A stretch of DNA of 44,319 bases from Escherichia phage HK1: sequence record PP514360; one strand, 5' to 3'. The position numbers and the translations under genes were made by a program. This document shows positions 8,640 to 44,319 of this stretch, in pieces. The first letter of the stretch is position 1. Each line of letters begins with the position of its first letter. The notes under the pieces are model-generated. The model searched no databases, had not been told where the DNA came from, and saw nothing but the letters and a program-made list of their open reading frames with translations.

Positions 8640-9419
8640 TTAACGACGGCGACGTTTACGTGGTGCTTCGTCTTCGTCGTCTTCGTCCTCATCTTCATCG
8701 TCGCGTGGCTTACGACGTTTACGAGGTTTTTCATCTTCGTCGTCGTCATCGTGGCGCTTGGACTTTTTGGACTTGCGCGGCTTGTCGTCTTCGTCGTCGT
8801 CATCACGACGTTTTGACTTTTTGGACTTGCGCGGGCTTTCATCTTCGTCATCGTTGTCCAGGTCTTCGTCGGAGCAAGAAGAACCGCCACCACCGAAGGA
8901 TTCACCATCATCGCGGAAGCGCAGACCCAGCAAGCCAGCCCCGAGTCCCTTGCCGTTGGTATTGTTCCACGCCCAAATATCAATGGACACGTTGCAATAA
9001 CAACCGGAGTAAATCTCCCGTCCTTCGATCTCGTCGCCTTCTACGGTCAGACCTTGTTCCGTCTGCTTCTCGCCGAGTGACGTTTGAATGTTTGGTTGTT
9101 TGAACGATTTGGTGTTGATATACAACATGCCTTCGAATTCTTCGGTTACTTCGTCGCGCTCATCACCGTCGCGAACAGCGCACTCCTTAGAATCCTGGGC
9201 GTAGTGGCGGTCCATCCACTTATCGGCGTTCTTCTCGGATTTCAGCTTGTCGGTGAGCACTGCGCGCGCTGCCGCTTCCACTTTGTCCACCTGCGGATCT
9301 TCTTTATCCAGAAGAATCACGGCACGGTATGCCGGTTTCTGACCATCTTTTTTAGGGGTATCGCGCTCCCAAATATTAAGGAAACATACGCGCACATTTT
9401 TCAGGTTGACTTTAGCCAT
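8640..9419 (-). CDS. putative ssDNA-binding protein (DUF2815/T7 gp2.5-like) with repetitive acidic/basic C-terminal tail
   Basis: N-terminus MAKVNLKNVRVCFLNIWE resembles the DUF2815 family that commonly sits between DUF2800 and PolA; C-terminus is a tandem repeat (DDDDEDxKPRKSKKSKR). ATG at 9419 (track start at 9440 is GTG). Confidence 0.55.
   Translation of the reverse strand: MAKVNLKNVRVCFLNIWERDTPKKDGQKPAYRAVILLDKEDPQVDKVEAAARAVLTDKLKSEKNADKWMDRHYAQDSKECAVRDGDERDEVTEEFEGMLYINTKSFKQPNIQTSLGEKQTEQGLTVEGDEIEGREIYSGCYCNVSIDIWAWNNTNGKGLGAGLLGLRFRDDGESFGGGGSSCSDEDLDNDDEDESPRKSKKSKRRDDDDEDDKPRKSKKSKRHDDDDEDEKPRKRRKPRDDEDEDEDDEDEAPRKRRRR
8695..8860. repeat. intragenic tandem repeat (~57-bp unit) encoding alternating acidic/basic tail of the SSB-like protein
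   Basis: TTTTTGGACTTGCGCGG...TCGTCGTCGTCATC appears in tandem; encodes DDDDEDxKPRKSKKSKR units. Confidence 0.7.
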
Positions 9420-11660: not shown

Positions 11661-12176
11661 TTAATCTTCCAGTTCGAAATAGGTTTCGACGATTTCTTTT
11701 AGCTCTTTGTGGAAGTCTTCGACGTCGTCATCTTCCAGCTTGGCGATTGATTTGATCTCGAACGATTCCAGCAGGTCGTCGAATTCGTCGTTCGCGTCGT
11801 CGTCATCACCACCCGCAATAATCGCGGCATACTGTTTGATTTCGTCGCGCATCTCCGCCAGCGGATCGGCATCTTTCTTACCTTTGCCTTTCGCCGGTGC
11901 TTTCTTAGACTTAGCCGGTTTTTCGTCTTCGGCATCGTCGTCGTCATCTTCTACGACTTCTTTTTTAGCCTTACCTTTCGCCGGTGCTTTTTTAGATTTA
12001 GCCGGTTTTTCGTCTTCAGCTTCATCGTCGTCATCTTCGACAACTTCTTTTTTGGCCTTAGACGGCTTCTTGTCTTCCTGCTTACCAACGGCAGCGCCAA
12101 CGGTTTCATAATGCTTTGCAATGGTTTCCAGTGCTACTACGCCGCGAGTGATCAGGTTTACGATTTGCTCAAACAT
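11661..12176 (-). CDS. acidic protein with tandem Lys-rich/Asp-Glu-rich repeats (histone-H1-like KAPAKGK units)
   Basis: Start at MFEQIVNL (ATG 12176) with GGAGA SD; internal 29-aa unit KKEVVEDDDDEAEDEKPAKSKKAPAKGKA repeated twice; strongly acidic C-terminus. The track ORF start at 12356 runs through the promoter region and is unlikely. Confidence 0.55.
   Translation of the reverse strand: MFEQIVNLITRGVVALETIAKHYETVGAAVGKQEDKKPSKAKKEVVEDDDDEAEDEKPAKSKKAPAKGKAKKEVVEDDDDDAEDEKPAKSKKAPAKGKGKKDADPLAEMRDEIKQYAAIIAGGDDDDANDEFDDLLESFEIKSIAKLEDDDVEDFHKELKEIVETYFELED
11881..12057. repeat. intragenic tandem repeat (~88-bp unit, two copies) in the acidic repeat protein gene
   Basis: CCTTTCGCCGGTGCTTT(C/T)TTAGA(C/T)TTAGCCGGTTTTTCGTCTTC...TCGTCGTCATCTTC twice in tandem; resembles the SSB-gene repeat unit at nucleotide level. 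Confidence 0.7.
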
Positions 12177-12577: not shown

Positions 12578-12907
12578 ATGAATGTAAACGACGCAATCGA
12601 AATGTTAACGAAGACTGTTTGCAGTGAGACAAGCCGGTCATGGGCATATACCGATGCCGTGGGGGCGGTGTTATTTGAAATCGAACGACTGCGGCTTACC
12701 GAAAAAGAATTGCGCGCCAGGCTGGAACTACTCAACGGTACGGCAGCAAGCAAGCTGCAAAAGCACAATGAGGAAATGGAAGAATACAAAAAACAGGTTA
12801 TCCGTTTACGCGATGAGGGGAAGTCATGGGCAATGATCGCGGAGTTGACAGGAATTAATCAGAGCACCGTGCGATCCTGGGTACGCAATAACAAAACTTC
12901 GAAGTAA
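12578..12907 (+). CDS. HTH DNA-binding protein (putative transcriptional regulator)
   Basis: C-terminal KSWAMIAELTGINQSTVRSWVRN is a classic helix-turn-helix; GAGGG SD upstream; first gene of the plus-strand block, downstream of TTGACA-17-TAGTTT. Confidence 0.6.
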   Translation: MNVNDAIEMLTKTVCSETSRSWAYTDAVGAVLFEIERLRLTEKELRARLELLNGTAASKLQKHNEEMEEYKKQVIRLRDEGKSWAMIAELTGINQSTVRSWVRNNKTSK

Positions 12908-12917
12908 GGCGACGGCA

Positions 12918-15182
12918 ATGAGCTTAATTAAATTCGCTGTAACAAAACCCGCTAAAAAAGGCGAAAAAGCCAGGGCGGAAAACTTCCAGATGACCACCGA
13001 TGAATTTTTCGAATTTATCAAAGATGCGAAAGAAATATCCTCGGTGCATATCAACAAAACGGAAGATAAAGCCGAGTATGCACGCCGCAAGCGTAAGGCC
13101 GACGGCATCGTGGCGTATACCAGTGACGGATTGCGTCGCAAGACCAGTGCGGTGGACCGCTCGATCCTGTTCTTTGATATTGACCGCACCGACACTCGCA
13201 CCTTGCGCCGCTGCCGTAAGGCTTTCATCGACGCGGGTCTGGAACACGTATTCCACACAACCACCGGCGACCGCCACCCACTGAAAGGTGGAACGCGTTG
13301 CGCTCGCTTCCTGGTGCTCACTGACAAGCCTGTACCGGCGGAAGACCTGGGCCGTGTCCAGTATGCGCTATTACACCAACTTGGTCTGTCAGATGTGGAC
13401 TTCGACGATTGCACGAAAGACACAAACCGCCTGATGTACCTACCACACCAGCAGTCTGTAATAAAGTGTCACTACGGCAAACGTGCCCGCGTCCGTCGTC
13501 TGCTTCGCCTGGCGGATACGCTTGGCGTGGAGAAGGAAGAAGTACGCCGCGAACTGACCCAGGGCGACGACGCAGTGGCAGACGGCATTCTTGACTGGTG
13601 CTTCCAGGCAGGATTCGAGGAGTTATCTTCCGGTCGCGGTTATGAAGTGCCGTGCCCGAACGAACATCTGCACAGCGGCGAAGGGTCGACGGCTATCATG
13701 GTTAAGGATGGCGAGATCCGTTTCAAGTGTATGCACACCGGCAACGAGTGTTGCTCCGAACTGAATAGACACCAGCACCTGGCGCTGCGTCTTATCGGGA
13801 TCCCGGACCACCTGAACGTCGAGCCACACAATATGTCCCGTAAGCAAATAGCCGCCATCCTTCCGGGGCTGGACGACGAGGAAGTCGAATCCTTATATGA
13901 ACATATTGTTGATGCGGTTGGCGACGGCGAAGAATATGGCGTGTGCACCGATGCGGATCTGGATAATGAGCCGGTTGCGCTGTTCAGTAAGCACGACCCG
14001 ATCATCGAGGGGTTGATTAACTTTAAATCAACCTGGTATATGGCTGGTGAGTCGAATATCGGTAAGTCTTTCTATGTGCTGGGCCAAATGGGCGCGGTTG
14101 CCGCGGGTATCCCGTTTGGCGGTGCGAAGGTCGTCCAGTCTCATTGCTTCTATTTCGACGCGGAAGGCGGCGAAGCCTCCAACCAGCGCAAAGAAGCATT
14201 GCAGATTAAATACGAGCACGACCTGGACAAGCTGCACATTATCGACCTGCAGTCTCGCGGCTGGGATATCACCAGCAAGTCCGGTTTGCGCGAAGTTATC
14301 AGCTTTATCAACCGCACCGCTAACGGCGAACCTGTTGGCCTGGTGGCGTTCGACTCACTCAACCAGACTGTTGCTCTGCGGTCCGCCGATGCTAAACCGT
14401 TTGACGAGAACAACGCCAGCGATATGGGTGAAGTGGTCAAAGCGCTGAAGGCCATTGCGGAAAACACAGGTGGCAGTGCGGGCGTCATCCACCACCCGGC
14501 GAAGGGTGCAAACGGCAGCAGAACCCCACGCGGATCCGGCGCACTGCATGGCGCTGTCGATTCAGCTTTCTTCCTGGAACAGCCGGACGACAACCAGCCG
14601 GGACAACTTAACCTGTATCACGAAAAGTCACGTAACGGCATCAAGCAAGCGCCGCGTGGCTTCGTCCTGCTCAAGTGCAAGGTGGCGGTAGATCTCCGCA
14701 AGTCAGAAGCGTTCGCGTCGCACCAGTCCACCAGCACCGGGCCAGACTTCGGTGACGTAGTTGCTGGTTGGGACGTCAAACCAATTGCGTCCACCCCGCG
14801 CGACGAGACTTTATACCTCGTACCGGTCGCCCTGGCACCGTTCGCTATAGAACAGGCGAAGGCCGCAGGAAAAGCCGCAGTTAAGGAAGAGAACACCGCC
14901 GGACCGCGCACCGAAAAAGAAAAGGTACTTTACGCGGCCCTGGAAAAACTGATGGAAGATAACCCGGACCATACTGGTTTCAGTAAATCGGCAATCGTCC
15001 GCCAGGCAGGACTCGCGAAGGGGGGCACTTCGACGAAGGCAATCGACGATATGGTTGAGCGCGGCGTGATCGGTTTCTATACAGATCCGCACACCGGGGC
15101 CATATATGGGTCGTCGAATTTAGTCATCAAATCGGATATCCCCATCACGCTTTCGGCGACCGATGACGACCTGAACGATTAA
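12918..15182 (+). CDS. DNA primase-helicase (N-terminal primase-like domain, C-terminal RecA-like ATPase)
   Basis: 754 aa; LFFDIDRTD (DxD, primase-polymerase-like), Cys/His cluster CPNEHLH...CMHTGNEC, Walker A GESNIGKS and AFDSLNQ in a RecA-like C-terminal half. Confidence 0.75.
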   Translation: MSLIKFAVTKPAKKGEKARAENFQMTTDEFFEFIKDAKEISSVHINKTEDKAEYARRKRKADGIVAYTSDGLRRKTSAVDRSILFFDIDRTDTRTLRRCRKAFIDAGLEHVFHTTTGDRHPLKGGTRCARFLVLTDKPVPAEDLGRVQYALLHQLGLSDVDFDDCTKDTNRLMYLPHQQSVIKCHYGKRARVRRLLRLADTLGVEKEEVRRELTQGDDAVADGILDWCFQAGFEELSSGRGYEVPCPNEHLHSGEGSTAIMVKDGEIRFKCMHTGNECCSELNRHQHLALRLIGIPDHLNVEPHNMSRKQIAAILPGLDDEEVESLYEHIVDAVGDGEEYGVCTDADLDNEPVALFSKHDPIIEGLINFKSTWYMAGESNIGKSFYVLGQMGAVAAGIPFGGAKVVQSHCFYFDAEGGEASNQRKEALQIKYEHDLDKLHIIDLQSRGWDITSKSGLREVISFINRTANGEPVGLVAFDSLNQTVALRSADAKPFDENNASDMGEVVKALKAIAENTGGSAGVIHHPAKGANGSRTPRGSGALHGAVDSAFFLEQPDDNQPGQLNLYHEKSRNGIKQAPRGFVLLKCKVAVDLRKSEAFASHQSTSTGPDFGDVVAGWDVKPIASTPRDETLYLVPVALAPFAIEQAKAAGKAAVKEENTAGPRTEKEKVLYAALEKLMEDNPDHTGFSKSAIVRQAGLAKGGTSTKAIDDMVERGVIGFYTDPHTGAIYGSSNLVIKSDIPITLSATDDDLND

Positions 15183-15275
15183 ATTTTGCGCGCATTGGTT
15201 GCCATTTTGAGCGTTTTTATCTGGGCGCATTGGTTGCCGTGTAGTGTGAATATAATGCATAGTTATGCAATAAAA

Positions 15276-15450
15276 CTGCATAAAACAAACGGGACAAAAA
15301 GCGGGACAAACAGGAGGCGGGACAAAGCGGGACAGCACCCCGTCCCACCCACGGATGACGCGGCCTGGCGAGGAGCGGGACAGCGGGACAGCACCCCAGT
15401 CTTTCAGACTAGACGGGGGGTCTGTCACCCCCCTCGTCTGAGACTGCATA
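15276..15450. repeat. copy A of duplicated non-coding module (GCGGGACA array plus GC-rich hairpin)
   Basis: CTGCATAAAACAAAC followed by four direct GGGACA repeats, GGGAC-agcacccc-GTCCC, two more GCGGGACA, then hairpin CAGTCTTTCAGACTAGACGGGGGG-tctgtca-CCCCCCTCGTCTGAGACTG. Near-identical to 32076-32250. Confidence 0.8.
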
Positions 15451-15605
15451 AAATCCGGGATTGCATATTGCACGGCAGCAGGGTGCGTATTGCGGTCGTC
15501 GACGAACTAGGCAACCAATGCGAGTTGCGGAATGGTGGGCGAAAAATGCAGTTTGCAGTAACAGCAGATAGCGATCGACTTTTTCATGCGCATGATTAAT
15601 ATTGG

Positions 15606-15662: not shown

Positions 15663-15989
15663 ATGAAAAAATTAATCTGGAATTACGCAATGGCTATGGC
15701 GAAGGCACAAGAAGCGGCGGAGTTCGCCGGTGAGGGGGTGGAAGCAGTAGAAAGACTATCGGCAGCGTGGGCCGTTGTGCGGGTGATGCAGCGGGCCATC
15801 GCCGTTATGCTTGAGCGCCGCTTCGACACGATGGAAGAGATCCAGCCACTGGCGAACGCCATCCAGGACTACGCGCTTGCATTCTCCCGTGAGCGCCTGG
15901 CGTATCGCTTCGGGATCGGTGAGACGGCAGTGACAAACGTCGCCCGGATTAAAGCACAGCGCGAACTATTTGCCCAGCTTGCGAAATAA
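15663..15989 (+). CDS. hypothetical protein (108 aa)
   Basis: ORF with AAGAGGA SD; preceded by promoter TTGCAT-17-TAGATT (15606-15634). Confidence 0.55.
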   Translation: MKKLIWNYAMAMAKAQEAAEFAGEGVEAVERLSAAWAVVRVMQRAIAVMLERRFDTMEEIQPLANAIQDYALAFSRERLAYRFGIGETAVTNVARIKAQRELFAQLAK

Positions 15990-20067: not shown

Positions 20068-20197
20068 CGGCAACCAGTACCCCTCCCAGCCTGCCGATTT
20101 GGTGGGCTTTTTTGTGCCTGTTATAATCCGCCTTAGATGGCAGGGCCGTCTCCTATGTCGCCGATGGTCGGCGCATATGAACAAAAGGGCTTATATC

Positions 20198-20749
20198 ATG
20201 GCAGAAATCAAAGTTAAGGGCCGACGCGCCAAACTGGACGGACGAGTAGCAGTAACCCCGCGCCGTAAACCAGGCGAGCAAACCGAGCACACCAATCTTG
20301 GACCTGAAATCGAGTACGGAAAACGCCGTAAAGGCGGCAAATGTGGACGCCCTACTGACTACAGATCCGTTTACTGCGATCAGCTTCGCCGCTATTTTGC
20401 CGACGCCGACGCCTGGCAGGTCAACTACTCCGATAAAGGCGCTGCGCAAGTAATCCCCCGCAACAAAATGCCAACCTTCGGCCGATTTGCCGCTGAAATC
20501 GGCGTGGGCGTAGCTTGCCTGTATCGCTGGGCGCGTGCGCATGAGGAGTTTGCCGAGGCGATGGCTGACGCTATGGAATTGCAGAAAACCTTCCTGATGG
20601 AAGCTGGCGGCGTGACCATCGCGGCGGGCTTCGCTACATTCCTGCTTAAAGCAAACCACGGCGTCCGCGACGATATACCGCTGGATGACGACGAAGATGA
20701 TAACGGCGACGTCGTTGTGGAGCCTACCGGCAAAGGCCAGGGTGAATAA
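20198..20749 (+). CDS. terminase small subunit
   Basis: Position directly upstream of and overlapping the large terminase; basic N-terminus, central helix-rich region (FGRFAAEIGVGVACLYRWARAHEEF), acidic C-terminus. Start at MAEIK (AAGGG SD); alternative ATG at 20177. Confidence 0.6.
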   Translation: MAEIKVKGRRAKLDGRVAVTPRRKPGEQTEHTNLGPEIEYGKRRKGGKCGRPTDYRSVYCDQLRRYFADADAWQVNYSDKGAAQVIPRNKMPTFGRFAAEIGVGVACLYRWARAHEEFAEAMADAMELQKTFLMEAGGVTIAAGFATFLLKANHGVRDDIPLDDDEDDNGDVVVEPTGKGQGE

Positions 20750-22134
20750 TGCGTAACTATGCGGCGGAACACCGCGCCCTTGAACGAGCGATCGCAAAGC
20801 GTAACCGACCGCCACGCCCGACACGCGTTGCGCAGGCTGTGCGTCTTTACCAGCCAGATTGCTTGCCGCACCAGGTTGAACTACTGCGTGACACGAAGAC
20901 TAAAATCCTCGGCCTGTGTTCCGGCTTCGGCGGTGGCAAGTCATGGGTTGCCGCACGTAAGGTCATCCAGCTTCTGACACTTAACCCTGGTTATGACGGC
21001 ATCGTGACCGAACCGACTATCCCACTCCTGGTTAAAATCATGTATCCGGAACTGGAGAAGGCATTCGACGAGGCTGGCTTCCGGTGGAAGTTCAATAAGC
21101 AGGACAAGATTTACAACGTGCTGGTGAAAGGCAAATGGACTCGCGTTATCTGTGAGTCAATGGAGAACTATACCCGCCTGATCGGTATCAACGCCGCGTG
21201 GATTGTTGCCGACGAGTTCGACACCACGAAACAAGACGTCGCGCTGGCGGCATATCACAAATTGCTCGGTCGTCTGCGTGCTGGCTTCGTCCGCCAGTTC
21301 GTCATCGTGTCAACGCCGGAAGGCTTCCGGGCGATGTATCAAATTTTCGAGGTGGAGAAGGATAGCCAGAAACGCTTGATCCGGGCGAAGACCACGGACA
21401 ACCACCATTTACCGGCGGACTTTATCGACACGCTGCGTAGTCAATACCCAGCTAACCTGATCGACGCGTACCTGAACGGCCTGTTTGTTAACCTTACGTC
21501 GGGCGCGGTGTACAAGATGTTCAACCGCGAGGAGAACGCCAGCACCGAAGAAGTGCAGCCGGACGACACGCTGATTATCGGTATGGACTTTAACGTCACG
21601 AAAATGGCGGCGGTCGTATACGTCAGACGGCAGCGAGTAACCGAGAACAAGGAGTTCCGCGACGAGATTCACGCGGTGGATGAATTTGTGGACCTGTTTG
21701 ACACCCCGGCTATGATTGAGGCGATCGAGGAGCGCTACCCCGATCATTGCGCTGCCGGTCGTGTCGTCGTTTACCCGGATAGCAGCGGCAAGTCTCGCAA
21801 GACTGTCAACGCGTCGTCGTCCGATATCGCACAACTGGAAGATGCTGGCTTCGAGGTGGAGTATGACAGCGTTAACCCACCGGTGAAAGACCGATTGATC
21901 GCGATGAATACGATGATGTGCAACTCGAATGGTGTGCGCCAGTATTTTGTCAACCTGGATAAATGCCCTACACTAGCGAAATGTCTGGAACAGCAGGTTT
22001 ACGACCTGAAGAAAGGCGAGCCGGATAAAACTGCCGGTGTGGACCACATGAATGACGCGGCGGGATACCCTATTGCGCACTTGTTCCCTGTGATTCGTCC
22101 GATCGCCGTTGTTCCAACTGTAGACTTCTACTAA
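20749..22134 (+). CDS. terminase large subunit
   Basis: 461 aa; Walker A-like GFGGGKS, Walker B IVADEFD, C-terminal nuclease-like GMDFNVTK; start overlaps the small-subunit stop (TAATG). Confidence 0.85.
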   Translation: MRNYAAEHRALERAIAKRNRPPRPTRVAQAVRLYQPDCLPHQVELLRDTKTKILGLCSGFGGGKSWVAARKVIQLLTLNPGYDGIVTEPTIPLLVKIMYPELEKAFDEAGFRWKFNKQDKIYNVLVKGKWTRVICESMENYTRLIGINAAWIVADEFDTTKQDVALAAYHKLLGRLRAGFVRQFVIVSTPEGFRAMYQIFEVEKDSQKRLIRAKTTDNHHLPADFIDTLRSQYPANLIDAYLNGLFVNLTSGAVYKMFNREENASTEEVQPDDTLIIGMDFNVTKMAAVVYVRRQRVTENKEFRDEIHAVDEFVDLFDTPAMIEAIEERYPDHCAAGRVVVYPDSSGKSRKTVNASSSDIAQLEDAGFEVEYDSVNPPVKDRLIAMNTMMCNSNGVRQYFVNLDKCPTLAKCLEQQVYDLKKGEPDKTAGVDHMNDAAGYPIAHLFPVIRPIAVVPTVDFY

Positions 22135-25074: not shown

Positions 25075-25186
25075 CCCGTCTGCGGACCCCGACGAAGATT
25101 TGATGATTGACGTGAAAAATATGGAATGCGGGGCGAAGCTAAGGGCGCAGGTGCTGGAGTTGCAGCAAATAATTAAGGGGCCATAA
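24956..25186 (+). CDS. putative o-spanin (Rz1-like outer-membrane lipoprotein)
   Basis: MLRALTALIVVLTLSACGSS: signal peptide with LSAC lipobox; Pro-rich mature part; overlaps the 3' end of the i-spanin candidate out of frame; AAGAGG SD. Confidence 0.45.
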   Translation: MLRALTALIVVLTLSACGSSSVPLMPLTESALRPPCKFDNPSADPDEDLMIDVKNMECGAKLRAQVLELQQIIKGP

Positions 25187-25198
25187 TGGCCCCTTTTT
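25176..25198. terminator. terminator between convergent genes (GGGGCC-N-GGCCCC family)
   Basis: GGGGCC-ataat-GGCCCC followed by TTTTT on the plus strand; sits between the plus-strand spanin pair and the minus-strand gene ending at 25201. Confidence 0.6.
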
Positions 25199-25200
25199 CG

Positions 25201-31237: not shown

Positions 31238-31252
31238 TTGGAGAATACTACA

Positions 31253-31615
31253 ATGGCTAAAGCACCACTCTTTACACTTGACCCTAAGCCTACTTTTAAG
31301 CTGCCGATTGAGATCCCGCGCCCAGGCGAAAACGAACCGGGCAAAATGACGTTTACCGTGCGCCACCGTCCGATCGACGAATTTTCGCAGACCATGCAGG
31401 ACACGGAGCGCAAGCTGTCGGAATACGACGACAACGACCAGGAAGGCTTTAACGTTATGGTCGAGGCCATCATGCACGTCGCTGAAGGCTGGAATCTGCC
31501 AGATGAATTTAACGCGGAGAACGTCCGCCGCCTGGTGGTTAACTACCCTCGCGCGTTCGGTGTGTTCCACACGTCGTACTATCTCGAACTAATGGGACTG
31601 CGTGAAAAAAACTAA
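31253..31615 (+). CDS. tail assembly chaperone (lambda G-like)
   Basis: 120 aa ORF directly upstream of the tape measure; GGAGAA SD; ends with slippery A_AAA_AAC immediately before its stop. Confidence 0.65.
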   Translation: MAKAPLFTLDPKPTFKLPIEIPRPGENEPGKMTFTVRHRPIDEFSQTMQDTERKLSEYDDNDQEGFNVMVEAIMHVAEGWNLPDEFNAENVRRLVVNYPRAFGVFHTSYYLELMGLREKN

Positions 31616-31929
31616 TTGAGGCGGCGCGACGCTTTTATGGCCCGCCGCCACCCTCCGAAGATTTAGCAGCAAGTTTATGGGGTGCGTCCCCCGAAGATGT
31701 TTGTCCGCCTGTTGCACTATGGCCCGACAACGCGAAGATAGTCGCAGTCTTCACCGATTGCGCCACTCAATGGCGCACAGGATTCGGTGGCGCATACGGC
31801 ATCGACTATGGCGTGCTGGAGTGGCTATTCAAGATGCACGGCATCGAAAACGCGCAACGTGCGTTTAAAGATATCAAGCTAATGGAACGCGTTGCGCTGG
31901 ACGAAATGGCGCGACAGAACCCCGCATAA
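31253..31929 (+). CDS. tail assembly chaperone frameshift product (lambda GT-like, -1 frameshift at 31606-31612)
   Basis: The -1 frame is open from the slippery heptamer to the TAA at 31927-31929 (about 105 extra codons, checked codon by codon). Confidence 0.55.
31606..31612 (+). other. programmed -1 ribosomal frameshift slippery heptamer (A_AAA_AAC)
   Basis: In the G frame the codons are GAA AAA AAC TAA; the heptamer A AAA AAC fits the X_XXY_YYZ pattern and the -1 frame is open to 31929. Confidence 0.55.
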
Positions 31930-31933
31930 CGAA

Positions 31934-31967
31934 GCGGGACAAAACGGGACGTCCCGTTTTGTCCCGC
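31934..31967. promoter_or_regulatory. perfect 34-bp palindrome built from GCGGGACA units
   Basis: GCGGGACAAAACGGGAC|GTCCCGTTTTGTCCCGC, five nt after the GT stop codon; candidate operator or hairpin. Confidence 0.55.
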
Positions 31968-32075
31968 CGCCATTAAACCGCATATATACTCACTTTCATT
32001 GCATAAACTAAAAGCGGGACGGGGTGCTGTCCCGATCTGTCCCACCCCTTAAAAGTGAATAGCTATGCGGTTTTT

Positions 32076-32250
32076 CTGCATAAAACAAACGGGACAGAAA
32101 GCGGGACAGAATGAGGCGGGACAAAGCGGGACAGCACCCCGTCCCCGTCAGTGCTGCCGCGGGTTTTAGCCGATCGGGACAGGCGGGACAAAGCCCAGTC
32201 TTTCAGACTAGACGGGGGTCATCGGCCCCCCTCGTCTGAGACTGAATAAG
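32076..32250. repeat. copy B of duplicated non-coding module (GCGGGACA array plus GC-rich hairpin)
   Basis: Same order of elements as copy A with a few substitutions; hairpin arms conserved while the loop differs (tcatcgg versus tctgtca). Confidence 0.8.
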
Positions 32251-32312
32251 GTTTGTTTTAAATTCGCTGATACAATGACCGACGGCAACTGCATAAAAAG
32301 GGGGACTGCATA

Positions 32313-34955
32313 ATGGCAGATCAGGCAGCGGGCATCACGCTCAAGGCGGACGTCGCGCAAATTAAAACGGCTAATACTGTGCTGGACACATTTGCGCAGA
32401 AATCCGAGAACACAGAACAGAAAGTAAAGAAATTAAACGACACACTCGGCAAGTCGAAAAAGGTCACTGGTGACGCCGCGGGCGGAATGGAAAAGTTAGC
32501 GACTGAATCGCAGCGCGCAGCCGACGGCATGACGAAACAGGAGCGACTCGCCAGCCGATTAGGCATGTCGACCAAAAACCTGGGATTCGCATCGCGGAAT
32601 GCCGCATTCCAGTTACAGGATATCGCGGTGACGCTTGAAATGGGTATGCCGGTGCATCGAGTCATGCTTCAGCAGTTACCACAGCTTACTGGGGCGTTTG
32701 GCGGGTTGGGGAATACGCTGCGTTATGTCGTCGGCACACTCGGCCCGTTAGGGATCGGCATCGCTGCATTAACGGCAACGATGGGCGTTGGCGTGTCGAT
32801 TATGTCCCGCGCGGAAAACCAAGTGGCGGCGCTTAACAAGACGCTGGCGCTGTCCGGTAATATTTCTGGCCTCACCGCTAACCAGATCCTGGTGCTATCT
32901 GAGAACGCCGAGCGTATGGGCGGGTCATTCCGCAAGACGCGTGACACCATTCAGTCACTGGCGGCGGCTGGTGTGAAAGCGGGTGCGGACTTCGGCGCAC
33001 TGGCGAAAGTGGTGAATGACTTCTCTAAGGTGTCCAGCCAGCCGATCGAAGAAGTTGTCGCGGCGGTAGCGAAGCTGTCAACCGACCCGGTAGGCGGCTT
33101 GCGCGCACTGGCGGATAAGTATCACGTCGTAAACGAAGCGCAGATCCAGCAAGTGCAGTCGCTTGTGGATATGGGTCGTGAGACAGACGCAGTTGCGCTG
33201 GCGAACAAAACCGCCGCGGCATCGTTCACCACTATGACCAACGATATCAAGGCGAACATGGGTACGCTTGAGCGTTCCATGAACGTCGTCACATCGGCAG
33301 CCAAATCAATGTGGGACGCCATTCTGGATGTTGGACGCGCGCAGTCCTCCAATGAGTCCGAGATGAAAGCGCGTGAATCCTTGCAGCGCATGACTACGGC
33401 TTACTATGCCGAGATGAAAGCGGTTAACGCTGCCGGTGGGGTAATGACTGAAGCGCAGAAAGCACGTATTAACATGCTTTACAGCGAACTGGTCGCCCAG
33501 GAAAAAGTAGTGGCGTCGCTCACCCTGCGTAACCGTGCGGAGCGAGACAACGCCCGCGCCGCGGACGAATCAGCAAAGGCGAACGAGGAGGCCAACCGCA
33601 CCGCCCGCGACCGCGCCGCGTTCGAGAAGGAGTACGCAACTAACGCGAAGAAGCGCGCCGACGAGATCGCCCGCCTCAATTTGCTGAATAAGCGCGGCGT
33701 TATTGATGAGAAAGAGCTTGCTGAGGCAGTTAAGCAGGTAAACGAGCGTTACAAAGACCCGGCCCCGAAGAAGGCCGCGGCTGTTCGCGTGGATGCCGGT
33801 ATGAAAATGCTGGAAGTCGCACGGAGCGAACTGGCCCAGCTTCGAGAATCAGGCAAGCAGATCGAAGCCAACGCATCTACGCAGACCCGCACGCAACGCG
33901 CTCAAGCGGCCTTAAACAAGCTGATCGCCGACAACGAGCAGTTAGTCGCCGCGAGTAAAGAAAGGGCGCTAACGGCAGCGGAAAAGCAGCAGATGGTGGA
34001 ATTTGGACGCGTGAAGGAAGTCCGCGAGCAGATCGTCGAAGAAGCCAAATTGCTGGATGCGAAAGAGAAGCAGATCAAAGCCCACGCGCAGGTCGACGCT
34101 TTCCTCAAGAATCAGAACGCCGAGATAAAGGCCACCGCTGCGGGCTACGCACTGTCTACGCGCGAAGCGGCTAACCTGCGTGAAGAATTGCAGCTAATCG
34201 ACCGCCTGAAGCGTGTAGGCGCTAACGATACCGATATTGACAAGGCGGTGTCTAAGCTGCGGGAAGTGCAGGAGGCGCAGACCGGCGCTAACGCCTCGCT
34301 ATGGGATGGATTCAGTCGCGGGCTTAAGGATAGCGTGGATGAAATGGGTAACGGATATACGCAGATGGCGTCGCTCACTAAATTCACGTTCAGCGCTATG
34401 CAAGACACGATGAACGAGTTTTTCGAGACGGGCAAGATTAACGCGAAGGATATGGTCAAATCCATCCTGAGCGAATTAATCAAGCTGGCTACATCGCAGG
34501 CATTCAAGTCCATCGTTAGCGCATTCGGTGGTGACGGCGGCAAAAACGGATTGTTCGGCGCTATCTTCTCTGGCCTGACTAAGAATGCGGACGGCGGAGC
34601 GTACGCAGGAGGCAATCTAGCAGCCTATTCGGGGAAAGTGGTAAGCCAGCCTACCTTTTTCAGTTATGGCGTCCAGGCGTTCGCTAAGGGCGCAGGGTTG
34701 ATGGGTGAGGCTGGACCCGAGGCCATCATGCCACTGAAGCGCGGGCCGGACGGTAAACTGGGCGTTGCCGCGTCTGGCGCAGGCGGTGGTATGGTCGTGA
34801 CGACTAACGTTTACACTGTGACCGGTAAAACGGATGCCAGTGTCAGCGGGCCGGACCCCCGTACCGCGCAGGCGTTCGGCAAGCAAATCACCGAGGCGGT
34901 GAAGGCTGAGATCGTGAAAGCGACGAAACCGGGTGGTGTACTTTACAAACGATGA
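32313..34955 (+). CDS. tail tape measure protein
   Basis: 880 aa, Ala/Gln/Glu-rich helical protein with a Gly-rich C-terminal region, between the chaperone pair and the M-L-K-I-J genes. Confidence 0.85.
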   Translation: MADQAAGITLKADVAQIKTANTVLDTFAQKSENTEQKVKKLNDTLGKSKKVTGDAAGGMEKLATESQRAADGMTKQERLASRLGMSTKNLGFASRNAAFQLQDIAVTLEMGMPVHRVMLQQLPQLTGAFGGLGNTLRYVVGTLGPLGIGIAALTATMGVGVSIMSRAENQVAALNKTLALSGNISGLTANQILVLSENAERMGGSFRKTRDTIQSLAAAGVKAGADFGALAKVVNDFSKVSSQPIEEVVAAVAKLSTDPVGGLRALADKYHVVNEAQIQQVQSLVDMGRETDAVALANKTAAASFTTMTNDIKANMGTLERSMNVVTSAAKSMWDAILDVGRAQSSNESEMKARESLQRMTTAYYAEMKAVNAAGGVMTEAQKARINMLYSELVAQEKVVASLTLRNRAERDNARAADESAKANEEANRTARDRAAFEKEYATNAKKRADEIARLNLLNKRGVIDEKELAEAVKQVNERYKDPAPKKAAAVRVDAGMKMLEVARSELAQLRESGKQIEANASTQTRTQRAQAALNKLIADNEQLVAASKERALTAAEKQQMVEFGRVKEVREQIVEEAKLLDAKEKQIKAHAQVDAFLKNQNAEIKATAAGYALSTREAANLREELQLIDRLKRVGANDTDIDKAVSKLREVQEAQTGANASLWDGFSRGLKDSVDEMGNGYTQMASLTKFTFSAMQDTMNEFFETGKINAKDMVKSILSELIKLATSQAFKSIVSAFGGDGGKNGLFGAIFSGLTKNADGGAYAGGNLAAYSGKVVSQPTFFSYGVQAFAKGAGLMGEAGPEAIMPLKRGPDGKLGVAASGAGGGMVVTTNVYTVTGKTDASVSGPDPRTAQAFGKQITEAVKAEIVKATKPGGVLYKR

Positions 34956-44293: not shown

Positions 44294-44299
44294 GAAAAA

Positions 44300-44319
44300 G
44301 GGGCCATACGGCCCCTTTT
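44300..44319 (+). terminator. intrinsic terminator after the tail fibre gene (GGGGCC-N-GGCCCC family)
   Basis: GGGGCC-atac-GGCCCC followed by TTTT at the window edge. Confidence 0.55.

Follow-up and report, generated by a model that had tools for sequence, protein, structure and literature searches.

A perfect 34-bp palindrome of GGGAC units in Escherichia phage HK1 as a probable element of a second iteron module of the phage primase-helicase

The window analyzed here is the whole stretch of 44,319 nucleotides from Escherichia phage HK1 (PP514360), which represents a near-complete Dhillonvirus genome (an HK578/JL1-like E. coli siphophage). The minus-strand genes up to about 12.4 kb constitute a replication module encoding an SNF2 helicase, a family A DNA polymerase, an Enc34-type ssDNA-binding protein, and a DUF2800 nuclease, and the plus strand from 12.6 kb encodes a 109-aa helix-turn-helix (HTH) protein and a primase-helicase, followed by the lysis, terminase, head, and tail genes. 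The sole Pfam match of the 754-aa primase-helicase was AAA_25 (RepA/RecA-type, 2.3e-19), and a phmmer search of this protein against PDB sequences returned only a marginal match, RSF1010 RepA (1g8y). A search for tRNA and tmRNA genes returned none. The genes and the first repeat module referred to below are as follows.

12578-12907, plus strand: small HTH protein of 109 aa, encoded upstream of the helicase
12918-15182, plus strand: replicative primase-helicase of 754 aa, AAA_25/RepA-type (phrog_3228)
14913-15128, plus strand: winged-helix domain at the C terminus of the primase-helicase, proposed to read the iterons
15256-15451, plus strand: module A, with 7 GGGAC units and 78-83% identity to 32056-32249
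20099-22134, plus strand: terminase genes
31238-31615, plus strand: tail assembly chaperone G (Phage_TAC_4)
31615-31929, plus strand: -1 frameshift extension T of the chaperone (tail PHROG match; DUF1799 in the annotation of relatives)
32313-34955, plus strand: tape measure protein gene

The non-coding gap of about 380 bp (383) between the GT stop codon and the start of the tape-measure gene (32313) holds a 34-bp sequence, GCGGGACAAAACGGGACGTCCCGTTTTGTCCCGC, that is identical to its own reverse complement (31934-31967). It starts 5 nt past the TAA (31927-31929) that terminates the -1 frame chaperone extension and contains four GGGAC units, located at 31936 and 31946 on the plus strand and at 31951 and 31961 on the minus strand. 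The two opposed pairs abut, with no spacer and no AT-rich center. An earlier note, prepared from the sequence of this DNA, had described a perfect 34-bp inverted repeat beginning five nucleotides after the GT stop with two GGGAC units per half-site, and each part of this description was reproduced. Its statement that palindromes of this length are rare by chance was likewise borne out, as 200 first-order Markov simulations gave longest palindromes of 15.8 bp on average and 22 bp at most. The 34-mer is the sole perfect palindrome of at least 14 bp in the 44.3-kb window; in simulated sequences of equal composition the longest one averages about 16 bp, and palindromes otherwise appear to be avoided in the window.

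The palindrome is the first element of a longer repeat region, here termed region B (31934-32244). A module of approximately 195 bp occurs twice in the genome in direct orientation, as copy A (15256-15451) and copy B (32056-32249), and module A adjoins the primase-helicase gene downstream, starting 74 nt past its stop codon (15182). Each module opens with an AT-rich box (TGAATAGYTATGC...CTGCATAAAACAAA) and continues with four CGGGACA units in direct orientation and one inverted unit; a GC-rich spacer separates these from two further units, after which come a hairpin and a tail (TGCATAA / ACGGCARC). Upstream of its module, region B carries three extra elements: the palindrome, a degenerate version of the box, and the dyad core in inverted orientation (32012-32046). 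AT-rich boxes (0.63-0.73 AT versus 0.45 for the genome) flank the palindrome and precede each array. The features from the palindrome to the tape-measure gene are listed below.

31934-31967, no strand: perfect 34-bp palindrome with four GGGAC units, 2+2 inverted
31968-32011, plus strand: AT-rich box GCATA-N17-TGCATAAA, a degenerate copy of the leading box of the module (AT 0.63-0.67 versus 0.45 for the genome)
32012-32046, minus strand: inverted dyad-core copy, GGGAC-N8-GTCCC plus one unit, 90% complementary to 32115-32145
32047-32089, plus strand: Box 1, GTGAATAGCTATGCGG...CTGCATAAAACAAA, which contains the cross-genus box TGAATAGTTATGCA
32090-32145, plus strand: four direct CGGGACA units, putative iterons (spacing 12, 15, 10), then one inverted unit
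32146-32174, plus strand: GC-rich spacer
32175-32190, plus strand: two more direct CGGGACA units
32195-32244, plus strand: three-tier long hairpin closing the module (-28 kcal/mol, z about -5.5; conservation 0.955)
32245-32312, plus strand: leader of the tape-measure gene, with a conserved ACGGCAAC box and two TGCATAA boxes

The second dyad reported in the earlier note, CGGGAC-GGGGTGCT-GTCCCG, does exist and is the exact reverse complement of GGGACAGCACCCCGTCCC, which is found inside both modules (32128-45 and 15329-46); its orientation had thus been read correctly, but its coordinates were about 10 nt off (32015-34, not 32024-44). Equivalents of the 50-nt hairpin were identified in 9 other modules, in which the structure is kept and the sequence differs. 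In several lineages the long hairpin contains that lineage's own repeat unit, inverted, within its apex or 3' arm (TGTCCG in L067, TGTCGG in L023, TGTCCC in L016, and TTGTCC in Pantoea phage AH01; L numbers designate relatives compared in this work), and of the two hairpin copies in the window (15396-15446 and 32195-32244), copy A carries TGTCAC, with one mismatch. A search of the window against Rfam at the gathering score yielded no match, with hairpin- or miRNA-like hits found below threshold only (E>=0.012), and scans of both regions for sigma-70 promoters and terminators gave nothing above shuffle expectation.

The frequency of GGGAC across the genome was compared with expectation, a comparison which the earlier note had named as one that could refute its observation. 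The genome-wide total is not enriched (67 observed versus 76 expected), yet the units are strongly clustered at two loci, with 14 within 31936-32189 (Poisson P ~1e-17) and 7 within 15291-15389 (Poisson P ~3e-10). These are arrays of short repeats within approximately 100-300 bp, as in iteron origins. The extended 7-mer CGGGACA was observed 22 times versus 6.3 expected. The search of the genome for convergent GGGAC...GTCCC dyads that the earlier note had proposed found 7, all in these two regions, compared with 0.64 in simulation; the spacings of these dyads are 0 and 8.

The region surrounding the palindrome is 92-97% identical to that of Escherichia phages YD-2008.s, EC115, JL1, and SSL-2009a. 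A total of 158 phage records in GenBank matched, all of which contain region B, and nearly every record among the matches listed has 2-4 matching places. The palindrome core was absent from 185,579 species-representative bacterial genomes, and no match to region B was found in plasmids. Among 16 Dhillonvirus region-B sequences, the perfect 34-mer is present in 2, those of the window and of SO-1, and the other 14 carry an imperfect version of 33-44 nt in which the spacers are non-complementary. The commonest form is a 33-mer, GCGGGACAGGCGGGAC|GTCCCGTTTTGTCCCGC, the spacers of which are also unequal in length. Three of these genomes have one extra unit, and in several relatives a second copy of the palindrome replaces the inverted dyad core (dyad 2). 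The GGGAC columns are invariant or nearly so across the 16 sequences and the spacers vary; in 15 genomes, conservation was 0.968 for the units versus 0.873 for the remaining intergenic positions and 0.80 for third codon positions in the flanking genes (Mann-Whitney P = 1e-4), and GGGAC is conserved at the level of codon positions 1-2. Nearly invariant pentamers and drifting spacers show that selection acts on the pentamers and on their 2+2 inverted layout, not on perfect self-complementarity.

Region B could in principle have arisen by duplication of module A and persist as a functionless, neutral relic, since it is assembled from incomplete copies of module A elements, some in tandem and some inverted, and is missing in Guernseyvirinae. 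This explanation is considered highly improbable, as the units show the conservation of codon positions 1-2 amid drifting spacers, all 158 GenBank records that matched contain region B, and three other lineages (see below) have such a region too, each with its own unit. Copies A and B also bear no mark of concerted evolution, being 78-83% identical within a genome, with similar values between genomes.

An explanation at the level of RNA was also weighed, in which the late mRNA folds at the palindrome, just after GT, into a 15-bp hairpin that serves as a partial terminator or attenuator, or as a barrier to 3'-exonucleases; such an element would set the ratio of major-tail/chaperone to tape-measure expression. 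The stem resembles a rho-independent terminator in being a GC-rich inverted repeat placed directly after a stop codon, and it is annotated as such in the HK578 and WFI records. The predicted stability is -28.9 kcal/mol (-19 to -24 kcal/mol for the imperfect variants), G-U pairs favor the plus over the minus strand in 11 of the 14 imperfect variants, and pairing is kept by one A-T to G-C double change in L036. The modules are co-oriented with transcription, and in the imperfect variants of the palindrome the hairpin is slightly more stable as plus-strand RNA owing to G-U pairs; a role in RNA is possible on these grounds. The full stem, which is built from the putative iteron unit, is nevertheless followed by CGCCATTAAACC instead of the U-run of an intrinsic terminator, the only TTTT lying inside the stem, and the terminator scan gave no plus-strand match, its count equaling the shuffle expectation. 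In most relatives the spacers are non-complementary and of unequal length, and the G-U pattern derives from few mutational events. An RNA element would also leave unexplained both the use of the 5-mer of the stem as a direct repeat and the change of this 5-mer along with the winged-helix domain of the helicase, described next, and it is therefore regarded as decidedly unlikely.

Relatives with a helicase-primase 37-46% identical to that of HK1 have kept the module directly 3' of the gene with a different repeat unit. The unit is CCGACA in L023, GGGATA in L025, GGGGAT in L028, CGGACAA in L067 and Pantoea phage AH01, GGGGAGA in Salmonella phage FSL SP-031, and TGGACA in L104, whose helicase is without the primase part. 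L104 has a 2+2 palindrome built from its own unit, TGGACA, and the 2+2 opposed layout is also present in L016, L286, and L287. In the other genera the module comprises a box, 3-4 direct repeats, an inverted repeat, a spacer, 2 repeats, a hairpin, and CACGGCARCA. Boxes were compared between the window (15256-15289 and 32056-32089) and L015, L016, L023, L025, L028, L067, L104, L284, and L285. The 14-mer TGAATAGTTATGCA, which is often doubled, and the downstream CACGGCARCA were constant across genera and the intervening units changed, a pattern which suggests that the constant boxes may contact a conserved partner, such as the body of the helicase/primase or a host factor. The TTATGCA within the module boxes is similar to a weak DnaA box. 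Scanning the collection with the 14-mer box gave mostly chance matches but recovered L067, L104, and L148; scanning with GGGATA-N-GGGATA-N-GGGATA gave chance matches among the matches listed.

The C-terminal domain of the primase-helicase folds as a winged helix, as expected of an initiator domain. The C-terminal ~95 aa are 31-64% identical between lineages versus 62-95% for the body of the protein, so that the tail diverges much faster. Phage AH01 and L023 are 95.5% identical in the helicase body and 98.6% identical in the XRE regulator encoded upstream; at the DNA level they are 90.6% identical until ~300 nt before the helicase stop codon and 98.9% identical directly past the hairpin. Between these two points the C-terminal domain is 48.9% identical, and both the repeat unit and the hairpin differ. 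The positions of these breaks indicate that a single specificity cassette, comprising the domain, the putative iterons, and the hairpin, was inherited as a whole. The small HTH protein encoded before the helicase gene was considered as the reader of the repeats and rejected, because the AH01 and L023 versions are 98.6% identical while the repeats differ. In L286, whose helicase is 68% identical to that of HK1, the putative recognition helix retains GGTxT-AI and the repeat unit is again CGGGACA. A similar C-terminal winged-helix domain is found in the IMG/VR relatives L019-L022, L024, and L026 (helicase ~43% identical), in which there is no module 3' of the helicase gene; two terminator-like hairpins and then opposite-strand genes are found there, and iterons, if any, would therefore be located elsewhere in these relatives.

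Three further lineages, each with its own unit, were found to have a module in the interval from the DUF1799 extension to the tape-measure gene. L287, of the 68% lineage, has GGGAC in its second module, including GGGAC|GTCCC cores. L288, of a 46% lineage, has GGGAT, and the corresponding module A, with GGGAT dyads, is that of L290. Edwardsiella phage eiAU-183 (L289) has CGCCCCG, the same unit that follows its own helicase gene (in L027). The units at both loci consequently match in four lineages, and one lineage-specific unit at two distant loci points to one lineage-specific reader. Repeat sequence and DNA-binding domain thus change together, as a correlation that is based on the exchange between AH01 and L023 and on the matching units of the four lineages. 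The Guernseyvirinae (FSL SP-031, AH01) have module A only. In L287, two opposite-strand genes of unknown function lie between the chaperone extension and region B (1853-2601), which indicates that the gap between GT and the tape-measure gene tolerates cargo.

The earlier note had stated that long perfect palindromes usually mark operators of dimeric proteins or strong hairpins. The conserved GGGAC units do have the character of a protein site, and to that extent the suggestion stands. A classical operator does not fit, as perfect dyad symmetry is lost in 14 of 16 sequences, the unit recurs as direct repeats, the units lie at two places in the genome that are not promoters, and changes in the unit track those in the winged-helix tail of the primase-helicase. 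Units at two loci, direct repeats, and co-variation with the winged-helix tail are together characteristic of replication-initiator iterons rather than of a classical repressor operator.

Because a same-strand gene starts 70-220 nt past each module, the CGGGACA arrays could also be operators or upstream activating sites that time the operons after each module (lysis and terminase genes after module A; the tape measure and tail tip after region B) with no role in replication; the binder could be the winged helix of the helicase or another factor. Strong sigma-70-like promoters are found just past module A in relatives, and the position between the chaperone and the tape measure is kept in four lineages. 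A sigma-70-type promoter was, on the other hand, not found in either region, the sites occur at two loci only while many intergenic or promoter regions are marked by a different motif (TTGGTTGC), the reader that is exchanged along with the repeats forms the tail of a replicative helicase, and Guernseyvirinae without region B have comparable tail operons. A purely transcriptional function is for these reasons unlikely.

The motif TTGGTTGC was observed 18 times versus 2.1 expected, often as two copies separated by 14-35 nt in intergenic or promoter-like sequence. Its sites are at 1241, 2902/2919, 5861, 9476/9492, 12381, 15195/15230, 15511, 15602/15633, 16187, 18731, 26349/26363, 36989, and 42445, and it overlaps a promoter-like TTGCAT-N17-TAGATT site before the gene at 15663. 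Analogous motifs are present elsewhere (GTTGGCTG/CAGCCAAC in L067, L028, and SP-031; arrays of GCAACCAAC in L027). The small HTH protein (12578-12907) possibly uses TTGGTTGC as its operator.

The ends of several database records fall in or near the second module. MW862804.1, NC_073059.1, and OX460974.1 start or end inside region B, at different hairpin or dyad positions, and the eiAU-183 record (KF772233.1, L289) starts 221 nt before the tape-measure gene. The ends in region B are probably assembly breaks or arbitrary linearization at a 200-bp repeat. Ends of this kind could instead reflect a pac, recombination, or partition site used by a terminase, a recombinase, or a ParB/SopB-like protein, and GGGAC...GTCCC is similar to the half-sites of F sopC, which was counted in favor of such a site. 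It is nonetheless very unlikely here, given that the record ends differ in position and fit assembly breaks at the repeat, a long distance separates both modules from the terminase genes (20099-22134), the scanned proteins included no ParB, integrase, or recombinase, and the unit follows the helicase domain, not the terminase. The F sopC element is a 16-bp inverted repeat with a 4-bp spacing from GGGAC to GTCCC; the F sopC/ParB centromere was rejected as a model, the dyad spacings of HK1 being 0 and 8, not 4, and no ParB-like family being present among the scanned proteins.

What was observed directly is how the sequence is built, that the units are selectively conserved, that the domain folds as a winged helix, that domain and repeats are inherited together, and that units at two loci match in four lineages; the best reading of these observations is that the repeats are the iteron origin of a self-loading helicase, with binding and origin function both inferred. 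The GGGAC repeats are most likely bound by the phage's own primase-helicase. On the evidence of sequence and of analogy with known replicons, the palindrome is probably a set of four head-to-head iterons, the first element of a second iteron module that duplicates module A and serves a self-loading initiator helicase. Under this model the iteron, with core GGGAC and extended form CGGGACA, would be read on double-stranded DNA by the C-terminal winged helix of the primase-helicase, itself the putative self-loading initiator. Inverted pairs of units may seed two helicase assemblies that face opposite ways, and the palindrome, the cleanest example of such pairs, would be a head-to-head core for loading or binding. 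The adjacent AT-rich TGCATAA boxes would melt, and the conserved long hairpin may act as a priming or assembly structure. Region B would then be a second origin, or an origin-enhancing or titrating site like P4 crr.

The palindrome has, with two units on each strand, the at least two repeats per side in opposite directions of an iteron origin, and repeats adjoin the putative initiator gene in module A and in 8 other lineages. Several observations count against an iteron origin at the palindrome: it lies, with region B, 16.8 kb from the helicase gene; it has no AT-rich spacer inside; Guernseyvirinae manage with a single module; relatives such as L019 combine a similar C-terminal domain with a helicase gene that no module follows; and the HK578 and WFI records in GenBank label the site a terminator. 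GC skew, which reaches its minimum at the 12.4-kb point of divergence, also marks neither module; it tracks gene orientation and is for that reason uninformative about the origin.

The closest functional analogue is the Rep/PriRep of staphylococcal pathogenicity islands (SaPI), in which a C-terminal winged helix binds penta- or hexanucleotide iterons immediately downstream of rep (PMC9371898). SaPI origins have 6-12 iterons with at least two per side in opposite directions, their specificity is lineage-specific, and fusion of primase and helicase is possible (PMC9371898). Module A and the 2+2 palindrome fit this layout. The HK1 helicase differs in its RecA-fold RepA/AAA_25 core, there being no SF3 (AAA+) helicase core and no sequence homology, and is accordingly an analogue, not a homologue, of Rep and of the alpha protein of phage P4. 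The HK1 system further differs in that the palindrome units abut, the second module is far away in the tail operon, and the modules add a conserved long hairpin and cross-genus boxes.

The ori and crr of P4, both needed in cis, are two separated clusters of the same short repeat (octamer repeats), and the HK1 genome also has two separated clusters of one repeat, although those of P4 are ~4.5 kb apart and flank the alpha gene. The alpha protein combines primase, helicase, and a C-terminal winged helix in one polypeptide (PMC2777425), but consists of a DnaG-type primase and an SF3 helicase with no sequence similarity to HK1. The second module of HK1 might recruit the replication initiator inside the late operon, either as a late, transcription-activated origin or by coupling initiator occupancy to distal tail-gene expression, with the two cis sites looping as P4 ori and crr do; this extension of the iteron model is tentative and held with little confidence.

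The ORF904 protein of plasmid pRN1 (prim/pol-helicase-winged helix) needs a downstream stem-loop, the structure of which is conserved, with variable sequence and conserved flanks (PMC4234260). The 50-nt hairpin of the HK1 modules has the same pattern of conserved structure and variable sequence. pRN1 differs in being an archaeal plasmid with an SF3 helicase and no recognizable iterons, and the HK1 palindrome, unlike that stem-loop, would consist of iterons and is distinct from the long hairpin. The IncQ plasmid RSF1010 shares the AAA_25 helicase family with HK1, as reflected in the weak phmmer match to its RepA (1g8y). The IncQ oriV combines iterons and hairpin priming signals (ssi) in one origin; its iterons are longer (~20-22 bp) and read by a separate RepC, its primase is separate, and it occupies one locus. 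In the SV40 core origin (site II) and the papillomavirus E1 sites, four pentanucleotides form two inverted pairs in a perfect palindrome and nucleate a head-to-head double hexamer. These are eukaryotic virus systems with an SF3 helicase and another origin-binding fold, and the analogy is one of layout alone.

The repeats had been noticed before. The depositors of the SO-1 record annotated 'region A/B' as repeat_region and noted the similarity between the regions, and other records label the site a terminator (HK578, WFI) or a hypothetical protein. A search of the literature on Dhillonvirus and Guernseyvirinae origins and iterons and on the SO-1 repeats found no description of them, and no paper was found that calls the repeats iterons or ties them to the helicase domain. 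Dhillonviruses, Guernseyvirinae, and their relatives are common groups of coliphages and Salmonella phages in therapy and model collections, and the present analysis offers a testable prediction of the origin or origins, of the initiator domain that reads them, and of a 5-7 nt specificity code in about ten lineages. The natural exchange of a cassette comprising reader domain, repeats, and hairpin would be useful for engineering orthogonal phage replicons and for correcting the labels terminator and hypothetical protein now given to the site.

Two further kinds of repeat were observed in the window. Two GC hairpins, nearly the same in sequence and bordered on either side by A/T runs (AAGGGGCCATAATGGCCCCTTTTTC), are located at 25175-25199 and 44294-44318 and look like bidirectional terminators where gene orientation switches. 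Tandem coding repeats of 54 nt and 87 nt, rich in GAC and GAA codons, are located in minus-strand genes at 8656-8854 and 11867-12040, where they encode acidic tails in the Enc34-type ssDNA-binding protein and in a 231-aa protein of unknown function.
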